64,000 bases of DNA from a virus (taxonomy: Duplodnaviria; Caudoviricetes): IMG/VR virus record IMGVR_UViG_3300042013_000103; one strand, written 5' to 3'. The notes beneath the pieces are model-generated. The model saw only the letters and a list, made by a program, of their open reading frames with translations. It was not told the DNA's origin and searched no databases. The position numbers were made by a program, and so were the translations under genes. Positions 1,383-27,860 of this stretch are shown here, one piece after another; within the stretch, counting starts at the first letter, position 1; each line of letters opens with the position of its first letter.

Positions 1383-3900
<2,518 letters not shown>

Positions 3901-3915
3901 GCTTGACTCCGGGGG

Positions 3916-4545
3916 TTAAATGACACCACTAAACTCCGAAGACGGGAGTGCACTGGCTTTCACCTCGGCACACTCGATGTTAAATGCCTTGCGGAGGATG
4001 TCCATGGAAAGGTTTTCCCGCAGGTCCGGTCCAAACTGAGTCACCCGAATGTCCTCGGTGACCGACGCTTGGGCGCATTTCAACAACGCCCGTTGTGTGT
4101 CGGTCAGTCCGTAAGGGGTGGCCTTGAAGAAGCGATGACTGGGTATGTGGTTCGCGCGTTCAGTGGAAATCACCACCGAACCTTCTGTCGTTCCCCGGAT
4201 GTCCCAGGTCAACCCACTGTTGGTGATGTGTATCACCGAACCGCTCTTCGAGATGAAATGGAACTCGAAGTTGGGACACTCTGCCTGGAGGTCGTGGAGA
4301 CGCGTTAACACCTTAGGGTTCCGGTAGTGGATCATTTCCCCGATCGCGCCTCCTACGCTGCTCAGGAGGGCTGGACCACCCCGTAATACCACCCAATCTA
4401 TGTCAAAACTCCAATCGCGCTGTTTGTTCGGGTGCGGGAGCACAAAGTCCATCAACGTCGTCTTGATCAACATGAACTTGACGGGGGCGTTGAGGTCTTC
4501 ACACAATAAGAACCCATCCTCGGTTTTTAACAAAAAAGAAATCAT
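3916..4545 (-). CDS. hypothetical protein (possible degenerate Ntn-fold)
   Basis: 209-aa ORF; second ATG (4545) has better GAGG spacing. Confidence 0.6.
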   Translation of the reverse strand: MISFLLKTEDGFLLCEDLNAPVKFMLIKTTLMDFVLPHPNKQRDWSFDIDWVVLRGGPALLSSVGGAIGEMIHYRNPKVLTRLHDLQAECPNFEFHFISKSGSVIHITNSGLTWDIRGTTEGSVVISTERANHIPSHRFFKATPYGLTDTQRALLKCAQASVTEDIRVTQFGPDLRENLSMDILRKAFNIECAEVKASALPSSEFSGVI

Positions 4546-4560
4546 ACCCATGCCTCATAA

Positions 4561-4580
4561 AGCTTCCCCGAAGGGAAGCT
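4561..4580 (-). terminator. intrinsic terminator hairpin (UUCG loop)
   Basis: AGCTTCCC-TTCG-GGGAAGCT followed by TTATG on the minus strand. Confidence 0.75.
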
Positions 4581-4585
4581 AGGGA

Positions 4586-5119
4586 TTAGAATTCGAAGCC
4601 CCGTACTCGGTCAAAGAGTTTGGTGGTTTCCGGGGGACCGAGCAGCGTGTCGTTATCCGTGGTTTTGAGGGCATCATCCCGCAACAGTTCTTCACGACGC
4701 TTCAGCTCTTGGCGAATGAGCGCACAAGCGGACAGGGTGGGCAGATCCAACGTGTCCCAGAACACCCAGTAGTTACTGAACCCGTGGCGGTTGCTCCACA
4801 CCCCATGGGGCAGGCGTAAACAAATCCAACCGTCCAAGGCGTCCACCAACCCCACCAACTTCGACAGGTTACCGTCACTGACTTGCCCCACCATTTCTCG
4901 CAACAGGCCTTGGGCTTCTGGGTTGGCGGTGATTGAATCGCTTCCCACAATGGTGATGCTTAACACATCGAACGCATTACCTGCCACCAACCAAGTATAG
5001 TCACTGGGTTTAATGGGGGTGAAGTGTAGAAAGAATCGCGCTACTGCTGGATCCACCCAATGCAGTTCTTCGGTAGCTGACACCAAAATGCGGTGTTGCA
5101 CCGGGTTTAGAGTTACCAT
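4586..5119 (-). CDS. hypothetical protein
   Basis: 177-aa ORF in the minus-strand chain. Confidence 0.7.
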   Translation of the reverse strand: MVTLNPVQHRILVSATEELHWVDPAVARFFLHFTPIKPSDYTWLVAGNAFDVLSITIVGSDSITANPEAQGLLREMVGQVSDGNLSKLVGLVDALDGWICLRLPHGVWSNRHGFSNYWVFWDTLDLPTLSACALIRQELKRREELLRDDALKTTDNDTLLGPPETTKLFDRVRGFEF

Positions 5120-5199
5120 AACGTGGGCCTCGTGTAAGGTGCCGCTTCATCGGCTTTGAATTTGATATAACCGCGAGACGCAGTCCATCAAAACACCTA

Positions 5200-5460
5200 T
5201 TAGTTGTTGACTGTGTTGAACAGCCGCAAGGAAAACTTTAGTGATCCGCCGGTAGGCAGCACCAACTCATTCACGCAGTCTTTGTCCACCACGTGAACTT
5301 CCAAGGAAGCCAACGCGTGAAAAGCCAGTTGCACGCCTGTGGCGACACCTGCGTCGTATGCGTTTTCTTCCGATTCACTCGCCGCGGTGTTTTTTGCCAC
5401 GTACGCTTCAGTGGCTGCGTACTGTAAACTTTTGAGTAACACTTGGAGATCAATGTTCAT
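5200..5460 (-). CDS. small helical hypothetical protein
   Basis: 86 aa; AYDAGVATGVQL resembles the 25225/25557 pair. Confidence 0.65.
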   Translation of the reverse strand: MNIDLQVLLKSLQYAATEAYVAKNTAASESEENAYDAGVATGVQLAFHALASLEVHVVDKDCVNELVLPTGGSLKFSLRLFNTVNN

Positions 5461-6655: not shown

Positions 6656-7280
6656 TCTCCTCGTAAGGTTCCTCGGATTCGTTGGCTTTTAACCAATCGT
6701 CGAGTAAACGAATGGAGTCCTCAAAGTACAGGTTTACCCGTACAGGCACCCCTGCGTCGACTGCCAGCCTGACGGCGGTGTTAGTGCCGCCGTGGACGCG
6801 TTCGTTCTCACGCTTACCGATGGGTTCAGCGTAATACCAAAGCTCTTTAACGAGCTCCTGGAGCGTGTGACCGTGTATCTGAAAGGCATTTCGTGTGTGT
6901 TGCCGAATACCCCACTCCCCTAAGCCACCCCAACCGCCACGCGCAAGGCTGGCCAACGCGCGTGCAGTGCTGTAGGTGTCTTCGAAAGCCAGGGCATCGT
7001 AGAAGAACGGCATGTCCTTGACCCGACGACGGTTGTTGCCGTCTTCCGCTAGGTAAATGCGTGCTCCGATTTCGTTGCAGCGTTCCGATTGTTTCGCCCC
7101 GTACCAAAAAGCACGGTCAGACCCGTACGCGTCGCCCGATGACCACGCATACCCCAGGTCGGTTTTGGTCCGACCCAACCGGATCATGTATTCAAGGATG
7201 TGCTCGGGGACTTTTCGGGAACCAACCCCGGCGACGTAGCCGAGGAACGGGCTGTCTGGTTCGATGAGTTCGGTTGCCAT
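6603..7280 (-). CDS. SLOG-superfamily (DprA/SMF-like) nucleotide-binding protein
   Basis: AGVGSRK, SSGDAYGSD (SGxAxGxD), GGTNTAVRLA motifs. Confidence 0.7.
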   Translation of the reverse strand: MATELIEPDSPFLGYVAGVGSRKVPEHILEYMIRLGRTKTDLGYAWSSGDAYGSDRAFWYGAKQSERCNEIGARIYLAEDGNNRRRVKDMPFFYDALAFEDTYSTARALASLARGGWGGLGEWGIRQHTRNAFQIHGHTLQELVKELWYYAEPIGKRENERVHGGTNTAVRLAVDAGVPVRVNLYFEDSIRLLDDWLKANESEEPYEEIDWRQIHDPRDPRLTEF

Positions 7281-7588
7281 GGGCGAGTAGCCTCCACGTA
7301 CATTTTGGTGTTGCCTTTGCTGTCCAGCTGGAGTTGGATATCGCCCCAGCCTTCTTGACGCATCAGCTTCTTAAACTGGATGGTTTGTTCCATGGTCAGT
7401 TTACGCGGCATCAACATCTCGAATGACCAGACCTCCAGTTGGTGAGCGTTGTTGCGCGTCACCTTCACCAGCGACTGCCGGTACTCGACGTTGGACATGG
7501 CAGTGTTAAAGAACCGTACCCACGTGTCGAGTTGGTTGATCACGATGGGTTCCACGGGCATCGCACTGAACGGGATCAACGTTTCCAT
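7184..7588 (-). CDS. hypothetical protein
   Basis: Start revised to ATG 7588 (TAATG overlap); C-terminal tail overlaps the next gene. Confidence 0.6.
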   Translation of the reverse strand: METLIPFSAMPVEPIVINQLDTWVRFFNTAMSNVEYRQSLVKVTRNNAHQLEVWSFEMLMPRKLTMEQTIQFKKLMRQEGWGDIQLQLDSKGNTKMYVEATRPWQPNSSNQTARSSATSPGLVPEKSPSTSLNT

Positions 7589-7995
7589 TAACGAGTCTCC
7601 ATGGGAATCCAGTACACCTGACGGTCCACCGTCGAACGCATCGGACGGTACCGATGTCCGTAGATGGACATGTTGGACCAAGGGTTACCGTTTTCTTTCG
7701 CGTTGGTGAACTCCAACGACACGGACTCGGCCGAGACGTAACCCTCCACTTGGGCCTGGGGCAACAGCTTAGCGATGAACGCGTTTAACTCGTAACGGTC
7801 CATCGGTTGCAGGACGTTGTAGGTCGAGCCCACCAACACGTTGCGCAGGACGTAGAACTTGTTACCCTTCAAGTCCAAGTAACTGAGCTTGACCATAGGC
7901 AGGTTCATTTCCAGGTCAATAGCTGACAGAAAAATACGTCGATCGCTGTGGTGTTTGATGTAGCGCTCTTCCTTTAGCGGAATGTGCTTTTGCAT
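7588..7995 (-). CDS. hypothetical protein
   Basis: 135-aa ORF, GAGG SD. Confidence 0.7.
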   Translation of the reverse strand: MQKHIPLKEERYIKHHSDRRIFLSAIDLEMNLPMVKLSYLDLKGNKFYVLRNVLVGSTYNVLQPMDRYELNAFIAKLLPQAQVEGYVSAESVSLEFTNAKENGNPWSNMSIYGHRYRPMRSTVDRQVYWIPMETR

Positions 7996-8012
7996 TGTTA
8001 ACCTCTGGTTGC

Positions 8013-8489
8013 TTAGAAGCCGAAGACGATGCGTTCCACGCCTTGGTCTTTCAGCTCTTGCATGTATTCGATGAATGGGTTGCCGACGTAATCACGGATG
8101 GTGATCTGCTCTTTGCAATCCCGGTACACTCGATCGAAATCGTAGTCCAGGATTTCCGAGAGCAACAGCCAACTGTTTTCGTTGTTGTCTTCGTCCAGAC
8201 AATACCCGTGCTTACCTGGAACCGGCGCGGGGACCACCAAGTCGTCCGGTAAGCCGCGGCAATTGGATGGGCCGATCTCCTTGTACCGCAGGAAATCAAA
8301 CGCCCAGCGCCCCATGCGCCCCCGTTTGTGTTGGCGCGGCTCCGTGACCCCGTAAGAGTTTTGATAATAGTACGGACCATTATCGTGCCGTGTTCCCTGA
8401 ATCGGAATATCCAAGGTCACCCAGATCCCGTCCGGGTGTTCTTCATCGACCACTCGACGCTGACCAATGGCTGTTAGGTAGAGTCCCAT
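8013..8489 (-). CDS. hypothetical phage protein
   Basis: RGLPDD...SWLLLSEI..YD pattern resembles a widespread phage family. Confidence 0.7.
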   Translation of the reverse strand: MGLYLTAIGQRRVVDEEHPDGIWVTLDIPIQGTRHDNGPYYYQNSYGVTEPRQHKRGRMGRWAFDFLRYKEIGPSNCRGLPDDLVVPAPVPGKHGYCLDEDNNENSWLLLSEILDYDFDRVYRDCKEQITIRDYVGNPFIEYMQELKDQGVERIVFGF

Positions 8490-8518
8490 ACCATCCCCCT
8501 ATTGAACCATACCGGTCC

Positions 8519-9832
8519 TTAGCTAGCGAAACCAAAAGCGGCTTTCTTGTTCTGGATCGGTTCCGGACGGAAGTTGATCACTTCGGCCAAGGTCACGTCG
8601 TTGGTCGCGAATTCAGCCAGCTCCAGGCCCATCATGGCACGCACGTCGTTGCCCTGCTCGTACGTCATGGTGCCGAACTTCAGAATGTCGAAGCAACGAC
8701 CCGGACGCACCAAGGCTTCATCCACCGAGGCGATGGTAGGCAGGTTGGTGGAGATGATGATCTTCACGTCACGCGACACAATCCCGGCGGTGGTGTTCAG
8801 CAACGCCGACATGGCACTGTTGCCTTCGGTACGTTTCATCACGAGTTTGTCGGAGTCTTCGGTGATCATTACCGAACCCGCTTGGCAATCGCGGATGTAG
8901 TCCGACAGGCCCTGGTGCAACAGCACGTCTTCACGGTCCGCCAAGTGAATCTTCTCGTCCCAGCCACGGGCTTCCATCATCTGCAGAATGAAGTTGGATT
9001 TACCCGTACCCGGAGGACCAATCAACAACATCACATTGGCGTTAGACGCCGCGAACTCGGCCCAGACCTGCGCCGGGGATTTGTTCATGTACGGGTAGAA
9101 CCGGGTGATGTCGCTGTACTCTTTGACCGGCGGAATGGTTTCCACCACCTGGGTCAGTTCGCCTTGCGCGGTCAACCGCAGGCGGGTCAGGAACGCAGTC
9201 GGTTTGGAGTTGGCCAGTTCGTTGAAACCTTTCTCAATGTACTCGGCCAGGGCCGGCACGGCGATCAGGTCCATGCTTGACTTGGTGGCGCTCGAATCCG
9301 GAATCACCAGCGCCCCCAGGATCTGGGTTTCGTTCACGATCAGTCGACCCATCAGCGTACGGATATAACGCAGGCCGATCGGTTTCAACAGCGCGCTGTC
9401 GATCTGCGCGATCAGTGCCTTATCGTGGTCTTCCGGTTTGGCGGCATGGGGCACGTCGGACCTCAGCCCCACCATGGCTTGGTCAAACCCTTTCGATGAA
9501 AAGTAGATCCGCGACACGTCATAAATGTTATCGCCGCGCAGCAGCGCCAGGCACTGGTTCCATTTATTGATTTCTTCCAACAGTGCAGGAGTTGCGGCTT
9601 CAGGCAGAAAATTCATAGTGTTCGTTCCATTTGTGTGGGTAAAGGTAGTGTGTTCGTATTCATCTGGGCGTTTTAAATCGGGTATGTACAAACAACGAAA
9701 GCGGAAGAACCAATCGGTGGTGGTACGAATGTTGAATTCAGCTGAATCGAATACAATCGCTGGGTCCAGGGATCGGGTATCTCGGTTGTCGGTGGGGTAG
9801 TAATCCTTTTTACGGTTAATATCGTGGATCAC
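8519..9832 (-). CDS. AAA+ ATPase (BCS1-like) with an N-terminal RKK-array unit
   Basis: Walker A GPPGTGKS, Walker B ITEDSD, LLNTTAG, ISTN sensor 1, RPGRCFD Arg finger; alternative internal start at 9616 with GGAA SD. Confidence 0.9.
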   Translation of the reverse strand: MIHDINRKKDYYPTDNRDTRSLDPAIVFDSAEFNIRTTTDWFFRFRCLYIPDLKRPDEYEHTTFTHTNGTNTMNFLPEAATPALLEEINKWNQCLALLRGDNIYDVSRIYFSSKGFDQAMVGLRSDVPHAAKPEDHDKALIAQIDSALLKPIGLRYIRTLMGRLIVNETQILGALVIPDSSATKSSMDLIAVPALAEYIEKGFNELANSKPTAFLTRLRLTAQGELTQVVETIPPVKEYSDITRFYPYMNKSPAQVWAEFAASNANVMLLIGPPGTGKSNFILQMMEARGWDEKIHLADREDVLLHQGLSDYIRDCQAGSVMITEDSDKLVMKRTEGNSAMSALLNTTAGIVSRDVKIIISTNLPTIASVDEALVRPGRCFDILKFGTMTYEQGNDVRAMMGLELAEFATNDVTLAEVINFRPEPIQNKKAAFGFAS

Positions 9833-10041
9833 CAGGTTTCCCCGTACCTACGGATGGCCATCGATTCCCGATCGCCCGGCACCAGATAATCGGGTCGGTA
9901 ACATTCCAGCACAGGTCCGTGTTCAACCACCGATTGATGGATGTACCGTTCATCCCCTTTCGACGTGGGAAACATGTCTTGCCGTTGGAAGGTGATTTGT
10001 CGGTACCAGTTCAACCATTTCTTGCGATCAATCGCGTGCAT
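9829..10041 (-). CDS. RKK-array microprotein G (70 aa)
   Basis: GGAGG SD, MHAIDRKK...; start revised from the 10143 ORF call; GTGA overlap with the AAA gene. Confidence 0.75.
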   Translation of the reverse strand: MHAIDRKKWLNWYRQITFQRQDMFPTSKGDERYIHQSVVEHGPVLECYRPDYLVPGDRESMAIRRYGETW

Positions 10042-10241
10042 GGGACCTCCTGCAAGAACGTTGTATAATCCACGGGGTAAGGGCACCACCGGGGAGCAGC
10101 AGGAGCGACACCGTGCTTCTCTGGGTTTTGTGGCTTTCGACAAGGATCACCACCGTGGTTGTAATCGTGTTCCGTGCACAGGTCCTTGTTGGGGTCGTCC
10201 GAACTACGCCAGATGAACCCCTTCTTTCGGTTGTACTCCAT
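10011..10241 (-). CDS. RKK-array microprotein F (76 aa)
   Basis: MEYNRKKGF...NPEKH...YPVDYTTFL. Confidence 0.7.
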   Translation of the reverse strand: MEYNRKKGFIWRSSDDPNKDLCTEHDYNHGGDPCRKPQNPEKHGVAPAAPRWCPYPVDYTTFLQEVPCTRLIARNG

Positions 10242-10434
10242 GGTGCGGCCCTAGGAAAGTTTGATGGTCGTTCGGGTATCGATAGAGGTAAGGTTCAAGT
10301 CGTTGGTGTGCCCACTGCTCCGGATCACAACCGACCTGCTTCTCCTCCATGGGTTTACCCTCATGAAAACTACGCAACCCTTTATGCACCCAGAACCCCC
10401 CGAAACACCGATTCTTTTTACGACAGACGTTCAT
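10204..10434 (-). CDS. RKK-array microprotein E (76 aa)
   Basis: GGAGAAGG SD, ATGA overlap; MNVCRKK...DPEQW...YPNDHQTFL. Confidence 0.7.
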   Translation of the reverse strand: MNVCRKKNRCFGGFWVHKGLRSFHEGKPMEEKQVGCDPEQWAHQRLEPYLYRYPNDHQTFLGPHHGVQPKEGVHLA

Positions 10435-10637
10435 GGTCGATAATCCTTCTCCAGCCTAAACACGGCATTGTTGTCAGGGTAGCCCGTGGGAGTTTCTCGA
10501 AGACACCCATATTCGTCCGGATTATCATTGTCGTCGAATTCACGGGCCGTGCGGGTGCCGTAATCGCACGTACGCGTACGGCTGTCCTTCCACCGACTGT
10601 ATTTCCGGGGATGTTTCTTACGCATGGTATCCAGCAT
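10431..10637 (-). CDS. RKK-array microprotein D (68 aa)
   Basis: GGAG SD; MLDTMRKK...NPDEY...YPDNNAVF. Confidence 0.7.
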   Translation of the reverse strand: MLDTMRKKHPRKYSRWKDSRTRTCDYGTRTAREFDDNDNPDEYGCLRETPTGYPDNNAVFRLEKDYRP

Positions 10638-10640
10638 CGA

Positions 10641-10853
10641 CTAGGTCTCCGGAAGAAAGGTAGTCTGACAGTGGCGGTCATCCCGGCGTAACTTGGTTTC
10701 TTTGTCCTCGAGGATGACCCACTCTTCTTGGTTTTCAGCCAAGTGGCTGTTGTAGTCAGTTACATGGACGGGATCGGCGTGCAAGGTACGTTGTCCATCT
10801 TGCCTAAAGGACCGTCGGGGAAAACCTTTCTTCCGGTAGACGTCTATAATCAA
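10641..10853 (-). CDS. RKK-array microprotein C (70 aa)
   Basis: TTG start; MIIDVYRKKGF...NQEEW...QTTFL. Confidence 0.65.
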   Translation of the reverse strand: MIIDVYRKKGFPRRSFRQDGQRTLHADPVHVTDYNSHLAENQEEWVILEDKETKLRRDDRHCQTTFLPET

Positions 10854-10856
10854 AAC

Positions 10857-11075
10857 CTATACCCCACCTTTTACTCTGGGCATGTGTCCGTCGTTGTTAT
10901 CGGGATGCATGGTAACGGTATCCAAACAATCAAACTCGATGTCAGGGTCTTCTGGTCCGGACAAATCTATCGAATGCCAATCTGACCAATTAGCCGATCT
11001 CGACATGCGTTCACCACACATCCCCAACCCAGGATTACGGTGCAATTGTTTCTTACGGGTGAGTTCATGGGACAT
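10857..11075 (-). CDS. RKK-array microprotein B (72 aa)
   Basis: Start revised to ATG 11075; MSHELTRKK...GPED...HPDNN. Confidence 0.65.
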   Translation of the reverse strand: MSHELTRKKQLHRNPGLGMCGERMSRSANWSDWHSIDLSGPEDPDIEFDCLDTVTMHPDNNDGHMPRVKGGV

Positions 11076-11106
11076 CGGTGGGCTGCCCTTCTTTCCATCC
11101 ATAACC

Positions 11107-11319
11107 TTACCTGCGGGTGATAAGACGACTTTGTCCCGTGTCCAAGGACTGGGTGTACGTTCTGTGTGCCCGACGAAAATCCGAGTTAGCCCAACCCATC
11201 TGGTCTTCCCGGGCAGTGTCGTAGAAATCACCCGTTTCCATGGCTTCCACCGAAACATGCGCGCGGCCAGGATGACGGTCCGCTTTCTTGCGCCAGAACT
11301 CTACGTCAACGCAGTTCAC
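11107..11319 (-). CDS. RKK-array microprotein A (70 aa)
   Basis: GTG start at 11319 within the 11107..11631 frame; MNCVDVEFWRKK... Confidence 0.55.
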   Translation of the reverse strand: MNCVDVEFWRKKADRHPGRAHVSVEAMETGDFYDTAREDQMGWANSDFRRAHRTYTQSLDTGQSRLITRR

Positions 11320-11476
11320 GGCGGTTCCCAGGTTTTCGCTGAGCGGTGGAGTTAGGGACCAACGCTTCTGACCGGAACACCAGTCGCGAGGAGCGTTGCA
11401 TCTCGATGTCGAGCAACCAATGAGCGTACAACATCTCATCGTCGAGACGAGGGATGGGGGCCTGCTTATTCGGCAT
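11306..11476 (-). CDS. 56-aa hypothetical protein, first ORF after early promoter
   Basis: Missing from ORF track; GAGG SD; MPNKQAPIPRLDDEMLYAHWLLDIE...; 40 nt downstream of the promoter motif. Confidence 0.6.
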   Translation of the reverse strand: MPNKQAPIPRLDDEMLYAHWLLDIEMQRSSRLVFRSEALVPNSTAQRKPGNRRELR

Positions 11477-11515
11477 AGTAAAGGTCCTCGTAAAATCGAT
11501 GGGGCTAGCATAAAG

Positions 11516-11530
11516 GTAATATAGTCTTGA
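11516..11530 (-). promoter_or_regulatory. phiKZ-type early (virion RNAP) promoter
   Basis: TCAAGACTATATTAC on the minus strand; contains the phiKZ early consensus TATATTAC; identical 15-mer at 27800. Confidence 0.8.
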
Positions 11531-11812
11531 CTTTTTCTAAAATGCGACATACTGCCTCCCAGCCGGGAGGCAGATATGCTTTTTGCCAAGACCTCTTTGC
11601 AGAGGCTATAGAACAAGGCGCCGTTGAACACCAGCGATATCTCACGACAAGGCCTTAAGGCGTTCGCTAGGTTATGGACTGGATCACCCCCTTAAAGTGC
11701 AGCGCTTAACGCAAACTGCCTCGCTCTATATAACATGATACAGCGGGTAGTTATTTACGAAATGGACAATCTTATGACCTTTCCCCATCCCCTTTAAACA
11801 GGATTGCCCGCA

Positions 11813-13912
11813 ATGTTCGATTTCTATCGGAAAAAGACGGACGTAGTACAGGCCAAGGAAAACGATACCGAAATCTTCTTGTCGGGCATCGATGGCCACG
11901 CCCTCATCCGGGACATCAACAAACACTGGAAAACCACCAAGATCACCAGCTACATGTTTAACAAGATCGAACGCACGGGGGTCAGCTTCTACAAGTTCTG
12001 GGCCGTGGAAGTGCTGTACATGGTTGCCGAAATCAAGAACTACCGCAACCGTTACACCTCGGTCCGCACCATGAATGCTATTAAGGAAGCGTTGCTCAAA
12101 GACACATGGCTGAAGTCCACGTTGCCCGAGAACACGTTGAACAAAGCAGGACGGTTGAACTTCGATAACCTCAAACGTTTGAAGTTCACGCCCGAGCCGT
12201 ACCAGATGGATTACTTCAAGGACTACGCCCACCGGTTAGACCAGTACGGGTTGAACGGGGACTTGATGGCTGCCGCCGCCGGTACCGGGAAAACTTTTTT
12301 GTCCACCGCCATTGCAGAAATGCTCGATGCCAAATATTTTGTGGTGGTAGCCCCGAAAGTAGCGATTGAGACGGTGTGGATTACATCCATCCCCGATATG
12401 TACCATAAAGAACCAACCACCTGGAACACCATCAGTGGCGACCCCTATAAAGGTGAGAGGGTATTGTTGGTACATTACGAGGCATTGGACCGTTTGTTGG
12501 AAATCACCGACCGCTTGGGGACCACAGATGTGGTGGTGTACCTGGACGAGTCGCACAACCTGAACACCCCCGACAGCTTACGGACCACGTTGTTTGCGCA
12601 AGCGTGCCGTGCGGTGAAATGCCGGAACATCCTGGAAGGGTCAGGCACGGCGTTGAAAGCGATGGGCGCGGAACTGATTCCCTTGTACCGGTTGATCGAC
12701 CCTCTGTTCACGGACAAGGTGGAATTCCGGTTCAAGAAGATCTACGGCAAAGAAGCCAAGAAAGGGTTGGACATCATTCAACACCGCTTGTCCATCTCTT
12801 CGTACAAGATCGAGAAAGCCGAACTGGCGTTGGCCCCACCGATCATGCGTGCTCACCCGATCAAAATCCCCAATGGGGACATGTTCACGTTGGACGCGAT
12901 CAAGGTCGATGCCCATAAGTTCATCAAAGAACGCTGGGTCTATTACGACAAACGCCGGAAGGCCGATGAAGCGTTCTGGGCCAGGTGCATGGACATGTTG
13001 CACAACACCCAGAAAGGCGGCACCAAGGAAGCGGAACTCAAGACCTACCTCCGGAACTTAAAGGTGGTGGTCAACGCAGGCATGGTCTGGGAAATCCCAG
13101 ATGAACTGAAAGCCTGCACCAAGTACGAGAAAGAAGTCTTTGAGAAGTGTTTGCCAGCGACGTGGGTAAAACAGTTCCGGGACGTGAAGTCCGTGATCAA
13201 GTACACCAATTTGAAGATACAGGGAGAGTGTCTTGGACGTATCCTCGGCGGTAAGAGAATTGAAGCTCACGTGGCAATGGTCCCGTTCGTGGACTGGGTT
13301 GGCATTGTGGAGTCTACGGAAAAGAAAACAATTATGTTTACTTCGTTTGTCGAAGCGCTTGAGGCAGCCGAGAGCCACACGCAGAAGTTAGGGTTTAAAC
13401 CGATCGTTGTCTATGGGAAGACTTCCAATGACTTGGCCACTAGCGTGGATCGTTTTGATACTGATGCTCAACTCAACCCCCTTATTGCTACTTTTGCCAC
13501 GTTGTCGACAGCGGTTCGCTTGACGATGGCCGACACCATGATCATGCTGAACTCCCCGTTCCGGCAATACATCATGGAGCAAGCGATTTCACGTATCTAC
13601 CGGATGGGCCAGGACTCGCAAACCTACGTGTACCAGGTCTCGCTCGACACCGGAGACAAACCGAACATCTCCACACGTTCTGCAGACATTCTGGCGTGGT
13701 CAACCGAAATGGTGGAGGCCATGCTTGGGGTAAAATCTCCATTCATCGTAGGCGAGGCTTTAGAGGCCTTTGAGCACTGCCAGTTCGATGAAGACCGTGC
13801 CTTGCACTATCAGCTGTCCAAAGCGTACGAACCGTTGGGCATTGACATTGCCCTTGAGCAATTCCTGATGCCTTCCCCTATTGCAAACAAACCAGCGTAC
13901 ATGAGCTGGTAA
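11813..13912 (+). CDS. SF2 (SNF2/DEAD-like) virion helicase, phiKZ gp203-like
   Basis: Walker A AAAGTGKT, DESH, SGT motif III, QAISRIYRMGQ motif VI; C-terminal ALE sites; start at ATG 11813. Confidence 0.9.
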   Translation: MFDFYRKKTDVVQAKENDTEIFLSGIDGHALIRDINKHWKTTKITSYMFNKIERTGVSFYKFWAVEVLYMVAEIKNYRNRYTSVRTMNAIKEALLKDTWLKSTLPENTLNKAGRLNFDNLKRLKFTPEPYQMDYFKDYAHRLDQYGLNGDLMAAAAGTGKTFLSTAIAEMLDAKYFVVVAPKVAIETVWITSIPDMYHKEPTTWNTISGDPYKGERVLLVHYEALDRLLEITDRLGTTDVVVYLDESHNLNTPDSLRTTLFAQACRAVKCRNILEGSGTALKAMGAELIPLYRLIDPLFTDKVEFRFKKIYGKEAKKGLDIIQHRLSISSYKIEKAELALAPPIMRAHPIKIPNGDMFTLDAIKVDAHKFIKERWVYYDKRRKADEAFWARCMDMLHNTQKGGTKEAELKTYLRNLKVVVNAGMVWEIPDELKACTKYEKEVFEKCLPATWVKQFRDVKSVIKYTNLKIQGECLGRILGGKRIEAHVAMVPFVDWVGIVESTEKKTIMFTSFVEALEAAESHTQKLGFKPIVVYGKTSNDLATSVDRFDTDAQLNPLIATFATLSTAVRLTMADTMIMLNSPFRQYIMEQAISRIYRMGQDSQTYVYQVSLDTGDKPNISTRSADILAWSTEMVEAMLGVKSPFIVGEALEAFEHCQFDEDRALHYQLSKAYEPLGIDIALEQFLMPSPIANKPAYMSW

Positions 13913-27444: not shown

Positions 27445-27708
27445 TTACAAGTAACCATGTGCAGCCAACCACCGTCGCATGGTCACTTCGAACTCGTCGT
27501 CGACCAGTTGCTTGACTTTCGTCGCGATGGTGCCGTTGGTGATCCCGGCCTGCAACTCTTCTGAGGTGAGGCCGGAGCAGACCCGAGCGTAACAGTCGAT
27601 GGCTTGGGTGGACATGTGCAGGGTGAGTTCTTTCAGATCGTCAGCATTGGTCATACCACGCAGGATACGTTCGAGGGGATCAGCCTCGTTCAGATAATCG
27701 TCGTTCAT
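27445..27708 (-). CDS. hypothetical protein
   Basis: 87 aa; first ORF after the early promoter; GAGGT SD. Confidence 0.7.
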   Translation of the reverse strand: MNDDYLNEADPLERILRGMTNADDLKELTLHMSTQAIDCYARVCSGLTSEELQAGITNGTIATKVKQLVDDEFEVTMRRWLAAHGYL

Positions 27709-27799: not shown

Positions 27800-27814
27800 G
27801 TAATATAGTCTTGA
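27800..27814 (-). promoter_or_regulatory. phiKZ-type early promoter
   Basis: TCAAGACTATATTAC, identical to 11516..11530. Confidence 0.85.
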
Positions 27815-27840
27815 GTTATTTTGGAATATAACGACATAAC

Positions 27841-27860
27841 GCTTCTCCCGGAGGAGAAGC
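27841..27860 (-). terminator. intrinsic terminator
   Basis: GCTTCTCC-TCCG-GGAGAAGC followed by GTTATGTCG. Confidence 0.8.

Follow-up and report, generated by a model that had tools for sequence, protein, structure and literature searches.

The 64,000-nucleotide stretch of DNA analysed here (IMG/VR record IMGVR_UViG_3300042013_000103; hereafter the window) is a stretch of an uncultivated phiKZ-like jumbo phage of roughly 308 kb (contig of 308,580 base pairs) from rhizosphere metagenomes, whose host may be a Pseudomonas, to judge by its closest cultured kin, and in which a Pfam scan identified a NAD-dependent DNA ligase, a phiKZ-type capsid-protein domain, a SNF2-type helicase and an AAA ATPase. 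The ATPase gene is immediately preceded by a minus-strand array of eight small genes, each of which encodes the tripeptide Arg-Lys-Lys (RKK) near its N-terminus and the last of which is fused in frame to the ATPase. These units represent a previously undescribed, clade-restricted family of tagged small proteins, most likely disordered, that is linked to a Bcs1-like ATPase. A preliminary description of this DNA had placed the unit starts at 11319, 11075, 10853, 10637, 10434, 10241, 10041 and 9832, with a spacing of 193-244 nucleotides, and both the starts and the spacing were reproduced in our analysis. In the rows below, strain differences and ratios of nonsynonymous to synonymous divergence (dN/dS) refer to the sister strain, contig L011, which is 98.3% identical to window positions 6787-12285.

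Unit 1: 11107-11319, minus strand, 70 amino acids, GTG start, (M)NCVDVEFWRKK...; 5 of 6 strain differences synonymous, dN/dS 0.05
Unit 2: 10857-11075, minus strand, 72 amino acids, MSHELTRKK...; both of its 2 strain differences synonymous
Unit 3: 10641-10853, minus strand, 70 amino acids, TTG start, (M)IIDVYRKK...; sister-strain copy P0127, dN/dS 0.09
Unit 4: 10431-10637, minus strand, 68 amino acids, MLDTMRKK...; ATGA coupling to unit 5
Unit 5: 10204-10434, minus strand, 76 amino acids, MNVCRKK...; 8 of 11 strain differences at codon position 3, dN/dS 0.09
Unit 6: 10011-10241, minus strand, 76 amino acids, MEYNRKK...; dN/dS about 1.1 from only 5 strain differences, too few for interpretation
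Unit 7: 9829-10041, minus strand, 70 amino acids, MHAIDRKK...; strong AGGAGG Shine-Dalgarno sequence, GTGA overlap with unit 8, dN/dS 0.08
Unit 8: 9617-9832, minus strand, 72 codons, GTG start, (M)IHDINRKK..., no stop codon, in frame with the ATPase; predicted disordered N-terminal tail
AAA+ ATPase core: 8519-9616, minus strand, 365 amino acids, orthologue of phiKZ gp208; Pfam AAA match at 4.7e-9

All eight units are 68-76 codons long, and the Arg of the RKK occupies residue 10, 7, 7, 6, 5, 5, 6 and 7 in units 1 to 8, respectively. The short overlaps proposed between units are real, with ATGA joining units 4 and 5 and GTGA joining units 7 and 8, and longer tail overlaps link units 5 and 6 (38 nucleotides) and units 6 and 7 (31 nucleotides). 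Translation of the 64-kb window in six frames yielded 21 RKK tripeptides, nine of which fall within 9814-11828, each 4-9 codons past a start codon; the ninth of these belongs to the plus-strand virion helicase. As the preliminary description had stated, the tag is written in varying codons (Arg as CGC, CGT, CGG, CGT, CGT, CGA, CGC and CGT across units 1-8, with Lys codons that also vary), and the array contains no DNA repeat other than chance 12-16-mers; the conservation of RKK is therefore at the peptide level. Searches for tRNAs and Rfam families returned nothing.

Unit 3 carries a perfect 13-nucleotide inverted repeat (10649-10661 and 10824-10836), of which about 0.04 such pairs would be expected by chance in the stretch. 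The segment that codes for RKKG is exactly complementary, in reverse, to one coding for TFLP near the 3' end, and the opposite strand of the RKKG codons, read in frame, gives TFLP. The sequence TFL also occurs in units 5 and 6, without complementarity.

Comparison with the sister strain bears on whether the units are genes. Across units 1-7, 28 of 39 substitutions affect the third codon position in the claimed frames, and the pooled values are 0.010 for dN and 0.089 for dS (ratio 0.11). Between L005 and L007, which are more distant, orthologous units have diverged to a dN of 0.24-0.54 with dS saturated, and the ATPase core to a dN of 0.13. Codon-usage scoring placed the claimed frame best of six in 7 of the 8 units. 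The scores themselves are near 0 bits/codon, compared with 0.53 in core genes, and the GC content at third codon positions (GC3) is 0.50-0.63 against 0.73. A long in-frame extension upstream of unit 1 scored -0.60 bits/codon and is, by this measure, not coding. The preliminary description had also remarked that several units are mis-called by gene prediction, and gene callers on the sister contig indeed skipped units 1, 2 and 6. A wastewater run labelled RNA-Seq cDNA contains contigs of 150-280 nucleotides over units 2 and 4, the ATPase and the leader region, one of which spans the promoter, so that DNA carry-over is possible. Judged from their pattern of substitution, the units are real genes under purifying selection.

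Arrays of RKK units were also found directly upstream of the ATPase in L005 (8 units), L007 (7), L008 (6), L013 (6 or 7) and L014 (4), whose ATPases are 46-56% identical to that of the window. On sequence comparison the family spans at least six uncultivated phiKZ-like phage lineages, an outcome that agrees with the earlier characterization of the array as an ancient, diversified cassette of paralogues. The relatives contain 4 to 8 units, always directly upstream of the same ATPase. The proposal of a cassette feeding an AAA ATPase was likewise borne out by the adjacency in every lineage and by the in-frame fusion in one clade. In all six RKK lineages the array directly precedes the ATPase, while the other neighbours vary, being the helicase in the window and, in L005 and L008, thymidylate synthase among others. 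Array copy number differs even between close relatives, one unit of L005 (MADIDRKK...) being missing from L007, and a GIY-YIG homing-endonuclease-like gene stands just before the first RKK unit of L007 (1316-1915).

An alignment set of 46 members from the window and L011, L005, L007, L008, L013 and L014 gave the consensus M-x(1-3)-D-[IV]-x-R-K-K, with the tag always within about 13 residues of the start. The three positions are conserved in 43 (R), 44 (K) and 43 (K) of the 46 members, and an Asp at position -3 is present in 21; variants in relatives include RKN, RRK and SKK. Outside the tag, members share 14-25% identity. A six-frame scan of the RKK-array loci demonstrated that nearly every RKK is the N-terminus of a unit. 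Four loci without an RKK array served for comparison (phiKZ, Phabio or L002, L009 and L010): that of Phabio lacks any RKK close to a start, and the other three show one or two, mostly in open reading frames (ORFs) of 16-51 codons that lie outside the array. Searched with a profile, a set of 1.84 billion representative proteins yielded 18 matches only, all of them RKK proteins of 63-99 amino acids. Scans of the units against Pfam and PHROGs gave no significant match (best E values of 0.06 and 0.023, respectively, each for one member only), NCBIfam gave nothing and a feature search of the ESM Atlas gave no usable match, in keeping with the earlier statement that the units belong to no described family.

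Weaker internal motifs had been proposed in addition to the tag and were compared with shuffled sequences, using the 8 window units and 24 units of relatives (32 members); they held up only in part. The [ND]P[ED] motif is enriched, occurring in 4 of the 8 window units against 0.8 in shuffles (P=0.002), and in the relatives, where it had not been defined, in 13 of 24 against 3.1. A further motif, G-x-x-[TS], is enriched as well (3 of 8 against 0.8 in the window, 9 of 24 against 3.2 in relatives). The C-terminal [TV]F was recovered in 5 of the 8 window units but proved window-specific, with 1 of 24 in relatives, where the ending is instead [DW]-[YWF]-T-x-[EP]. The comparison with shuffled sequences thus supported [DN]P[DE], whereas the profile of the relatives, once deprived of RKK, scored the window units at shuffle level, and homology beyond the tag is therefore carried by motif enrichment only.

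The units are very hydrophilic (grand average of hydropathy -1.0 to -1.7) and have a near-neutral charge. Their composition favours R, D, H, C, W and P at the expense of A and L, with shares of 10.3% for R, 5.1% for H, 2.6% for C and 2.4% for W, cysteine being fivefold over core genes. AlphaFold2 modelling of one member with the family alignment gave a mean predicted local distance difference test score (pLDDT) of 55.7, a confidence too low for any fold search of the free member. In a model of the 437-amino-acid fused protein, residues 1-70 have a pLDDT of 35-50 and the ATPase core a pLDDT above 90. These models indicate that the units are most likely intrinsically disordered, and RKK would therefore behave like a short linear motif.

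The ATPase itself shares 52.7% identity with that of Pseudomonas phage Phabio and 41% with that of phiKZ (gp208, 215789-216889). Its AAA domain has Walker A/B motifs, and the GPPGTGKS sequence and the E325-D326 pair (motif TEDSD) are invariant in 59 homologues. The top Foldseek matches, which extend over the full length and so take in the family-specific domain ahead of the AAA domain, were all Bcs1 or Bacillus subtilis YjoB (E 3e-12 to 1e-9 over 360-408 columns), and phmmer matched the ATPase to Bcs1 at 3e-5. With template-modelling (TM) scores of 0.31-0.44 and 14-16% sequence identity, the modelled resemblance to Bcs1 and YjoB is a likeness of fold and not proof of function. The fused RKK tail is limited to the clade P0001-P0004, in which P0002-P0004 are ATPases of 451 amino acids with an RKK N-terminus, and the tail is orthologous within this clade (M-x-HD-x-x-RKK ... 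DP[AE][LI][IV] ...). In unfused homologues translation begins at the counterpart of the internal ATG at 9616 (MNFLPE...), which is therefore the ancestral start, kept inside the fusion. In the sister strain a C-to-A change, synonymous in unit 7, makes an ATG one codon ahead of the GTG used in the window (9832), a change that supports the assigned start of the ORF joining unit 8 and the ATPase. The tail differs from that of the sister strain by 23 substitutions in 216 nucleotides (12 of them nonsynonymous; dS 0.27, dN 0.075), with a hot spot at 9680-9817 on the minus strand, against 8 substitutions in 1,095 nucleotides of the ATPase core. Because dS is also raised in the tail, by threefold, the pattern suggests a recombination patch, which is more likely than pure positive selection.

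Two relatives carry further genes two to four positions downstream of the ATPase, namely a paralogue of the prohead protease family of 150-156 amino acids (Peptidase_S80, E 6.5e-9; L008 8416-8886 and L005 9663-10115) and a second AAA ATPase (L008 9645-10778 and L005 10884-12017). An ATPase-protease system is not supported for the window, where the gene adjoining the ATPase (8013-8489) is unrelated to these genes.

Between the array and the divergently oriented helicase lie a leader ORF, a promoter-like element and a hairpin.

Leader ORF: 11306-11476, minus strand, uncalled, 56 amino acids, MPNKQAPIPRLDDE... (MPNKQAPIPRLDDEMLYAHW...), no RKK; its end overlaps the start of unit 1
Early-promoter-like element: 11516-11530, minus strand, TCAAGACTATATTAC, with the core TATATTAC
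Hairpin: 11552-11573, no strand assigned, perfect, 9 base pairs, CTGCCTCCC-4 nucleotides-GGGAGGCAG, just upstream of the promoter-like element
SNF2-type virion helicase: 11816-13912, plus strand, divergent from the array, orthologue of phiKZ gp203; starts MFDFYRKK

The leader ORF, between the promoter-like element and unit 1 and in a different frame from the upstream extension of unit 1, has a codon-usage score of +0.28 bits/codon, is called as a gene on the sister contig and shows 0 strain differences, against a dS of about 0.09 in its neighbours; by these sequence criteria it is coding. Like the units, it found no family match in Pfam, PHROGs or NCBIfam. The core TATATTAC of the promoter-like element is taken to be the phiKZ early promoter core; a literature search on it gave nothing useful. 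This core occurs only twice in the window, against 0.27 expected, and it lies about 40-65 nucleotides before the first small gene beside the helicase in phiKZ (gp204), Phabio (297, 299), L009 and L010. A hairpin followed by this element is also the layout in phiKZ, Phabio and L009, and L005, L007 and L008 have a hairpin and a common CAATACATTACGGTATAGA-like element ahead of the first unit. The hairpin of the window looks like a terminator on both strands. Because the TATATTAC element occupies the same place in phiKZ and Phabio, the array is probably expressed early. The early promoter of the preliminary description thus stands as a phiKZ-type early-promoter-like element ahead of the array, its timing being drawn from the sequence motif. 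In phages of this type, the early promoters used by the virion RNA polymerase are marked by conserved AT-rich sequences around position -10, and the late ones by TATG (PMC7598289). A second hairpin, together with an identical 15-mer TCAAGACTATATTAC (27800-27814, minus strand), is found at 27800-27860 on the minus strand and presumably represents another early promoter, for an operon starting near 27707.

To account for this locus we propose, at a probability of roughly 0.4, that the RKK motif (M-x-x-D-Φ-x-R-K-K) is a short linear docking or targeting motif that variable effector bodies have in common and whose function is tied to that of the ATPase. The genes would form one operon, probably early, consisting of the 56-amino-acid leader and eight paralogues of about 70 amino acids, the last fused to the Bcs1/YjoB-like AAA+ ATPase. 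Selection would hold the N-terminal M-x(1-3)-D-Φ-x-R-K-K and the weaker internal D-P-D/E, with the rest drifting beyond alignment. RKK would then serve as a shared docking or address handle drawing every member to one partner, and the fused eighth unit would draw the ATPase to that same partner. The variable bodies may engage different host or phage targets and so perform accessory functions in host takeover or counter-defence. The likeliest reader of the handle would be the co-encoded ATPase, for which the units could be exchangeable adaptors or substrates and the fused unit a built-in one; the ATPase is ranked first because its adjacency is invariant and the fusion is conserved. That the motif serves for binding, which partner it binds, what the variable bodies do and the early timing are all inferred, and the basic targeting tag of the preliminary description is, in our inference, the most economical reading. 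An accessory nature is supported by the dispensability of the phiKZ cluster gp206-216, including the ATPase orthologue gp208, which tolerates transposon insertions (bioRxiv 10.1101/2025.11.23.690004).

Several points count against the docking proposal. The ATPase is also present in phages without RKK arrays (phiKZ, Phabio, L009 and L010), in which small genes of other kinds, or an [AT]R.[ED]N family, take the place of the array, so that the ATPase can do without RKK proteins. Adjacency and a single fusion could have arisen by accident of history, the fusion amounting to the loss of one stop codon. Beyond RKK, no profile-level statistical tie of the window units to those of relatives was detected, and the early timing is read from a sequence motif only. 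A complex prediction for unit 7 and the ATPase core scored 0.00, a result that counts neither way. A more specific variant of the proposal builds on the ability of Bcs1 to carry folded proteins over a barrier. RKK would be a sorting signal read by the ATPase, which would translocate or insert a changing set of small effectors, and position itself when fused, at a boundary made by the phage, candidates being the early infection vesicle, the chimallin nucleus shell and the prohead. To our knowledge no linear sorting or docking motif has been described for nucleus-forming jumbo phages. We regard this variant as a long shot; if it holds true, neither a linear targeting signal nor an energy-driven sorter would have been described before in these phages.

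Other explanations differ in whether the tag has a reader at all. Weak codon bias, the units skipped by gene callers and the perfect 13-nucleotide inverted repeat joining the RKK- and TFLP-coding parts of unit 3 would be compatible with spurious ORFs in which CGN-AAR-AAR acts as a nucleotide-level signal, such as a regulatory site, a recombination site or an RNA element. The third-position substitutions and the dN/dS of 0.11 effectively refute this explanation, as the variation of the R and K codons, the RKN, RRK and SKK forms in relatives and the absence of DNA repeats, Rfam matches and tRNAs also speak against it, and its probability is very close to nil. We hold it equally implausible that the units are ribosomally made precursor peptides, each combining a conserved leader with a variable core that enzymes encoded nearby would mature. 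A tandem row of small genes alike at the N-terminus and variable beyond it, together with the fivefold excess of cysteine, would suit such a system, which was among the candidates named in the preliminary description, but conservation extends over no more than 3-6 residues, no Cys/Ser/Thr pattern marks a core, Pfam identifies only AAA, helicase, dCTP deaminase-like and ligase families among the neighbours and no maturase, and one unit is fused to an enzyme of 365 amino acids. Greater weight is due to the suggestion that the proteins have no shared partner and are accessory products of birth-and-death evolution with unrelated jobs, RKK and D-P-D/E being the slowest-evolving traces of a common ancestor or answering a generic need for solubility or expression. 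A composition close to that of random sequence, the weak codon adaptation, the lack of a predicted fold and the presence of another small family at the same locus in Phabio-type phages all favour it. Conservation of the tripeptide near the N-terminus in 43-44 of 46 members despite saturated dS is hard to account for without a specific reader, and other phage genes lack the tag, so that it is no general expression device; we consider this suggestion unlikely, yet deserving of serious attention.

The main rival to the docking proposal takes the T4 internal proteins as its model, and their architecture, in which diverse proteins share a short N-terminal tag, is the closest known. RKK would target proteins to the capsid (prohead), the diverse units would be packaged and injected with the DNA to act against host defences, and this label would be shared by the tagged ATPase and by the helicase packaged in the head. 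The T4 internal proteins are highly diverse and have in common only an N-terminal capsid targeting sequence of 10-20 residues (PMC3012670, PMC5694885). In line with this model, the helicase, whose orthologue gp203 is packaged in the head, starts MFDFYRKK, and its M-x-D-x-F-R-[KRS] resembles the unit consensus. This RKK looks coincidental, however, when compared with the RKM, RRI and mostly RS of related helicases. Nor does a conserved prohead-protease site follow the tag, as [SAG]-x-E within 30 residues occurs in 14 of 32 members against 9.6 by shuffling, has no fixed position and is absent from the whole of units 3, 5 and 6. The promoter element is, moreover, of the early type and not the TATG late type (PMC7598289). 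On these grounds we judge capsid targeting to be rather improbable. The array resembles the T4-even IPI, IPII and IPIII genes in being a hyperplastic locus of small, unrelated-looking proteins with a short N-terminal tag and a presumed host arms race. It differs in that the T4 tag precedes a prohead-protease site and the T4 proteins are late and virion-borne, whereas the RKK array has no conserved cleavage site, an early-type element, predicted disorder and a link to an AAA ATPase.

Comparisons with other systems place the array as a variation on the known theme of conserved tag and variable effector in phages. Like the terminal tags recognised by AAA+ proteins (the N- and C-motifs of ClpX and adaptor-delivered substrates), RKK is a short basic motif at a terminus, predicted to be disordered, of diverse proteins with an ATPase adjoining or, once, fused; unlike in Clp and Lon systems, no protease partner is evident in the window and the ATPase is Bcs1/YjoB-like. 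Mitochondrial Bcs1 and B. subtilis YjoB are both the best full-length fold matches and the best AAA-domain sequence matches of the ATPase, but the phage enzyme has no evident membrane anchor and, in the P0001-P0004 clade, bears the disordered RKK tail. The arrays of Phabio (PHABIO_299-306) and L009 occupy the same helicase-ATPase interval behind the TATATTAC element and encode hydrophilic, paralogous, fast-evolving proteins of 70-90 amino acids. Unlike the RKK units, these carry the motif [AT]-R-x-[ED]-N at about residue 17-25, and the ATPase gene is preceded by an inserted RNA ligase gene. Members of this tandem family, with the motif in forms such as EARVEN, ARSEN, ARRENW and CRGENI, lie at 3016-4351 in Phabio (L002) and at 4459-5399 and 6729-6944 in L009.

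For protein sorting among the cytoplasm, phage nucleus and capsid of nucleus-forming jumbo phages, the locus constitutes a natural experiment in which dozens of otherwise unrelated, predicted disordered proteins and one enzyme bear one tripeptide beside a Bcs1-like ATPase. If the tag is a handle, it could be moved onto reporters and mutated, which would make its reader, the role of the ATPase and the function of the locus testable. If it is not, the units still provide a clean new protein family for the annotation of jumbo phages, some members of which gene callers miss.

The neighbouring helicase has more than 100 homologues (P0139-P0258) that share the N-terminus M-x-D-x-F-R-[SRK]-x-F-G-x-V-x-V-K-E-T, encoded at 11816-11870 in the window. 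RKK itself is present only in the helicases of the window and the sister strain, the nearest relatives having RKM or RRI and most others RS, and on this alignment the extra Lys of the window protein is probably a coincidence. Co-variation of the RKK of the helicase with that of the array was considered and found unsupported, the M-x-D-x-F-R-[SRK] segment being family-wide and RKK confined to these two strains, with no helicase assigned to the other RKK-array contigs. The phiKZ orthologue gp203 is packaged in the head and proteolytically processed (bioRxiv 10.1101/2025.11.23.690004), and a conserved Glu at helicase residue 16-17 (A-K-E here) could be the prohead-protease cut reported for it. 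About 20 of the homologues, of about 1,050 amino acids, contain a PF14528 homing-endonuclease insert of the intein type.

Upstream of the helicase, a non-coding block of 55-57 nucleotides at 11677-11731 (with 11768-11778) is 91% identical to the stretch preceding gp203 in 47 phiKZ-type phages; it is absent from Phabio, L009 and L010. This conservation contrasts with that of the proteins, which are about 40-50% identical between the two phages, and with a GC content that differs by nearly 20 points. A second short shared block, AATCTTATGAC, includes the TATG late-promoter core. RNA structure prediction gave no signal in the blocks upstream of the helicase (z of -1.3 and -0.03). The 55-57-nucleotide block may serve as an upstream promoter element or a DNA site, or it may encode a small RNA.

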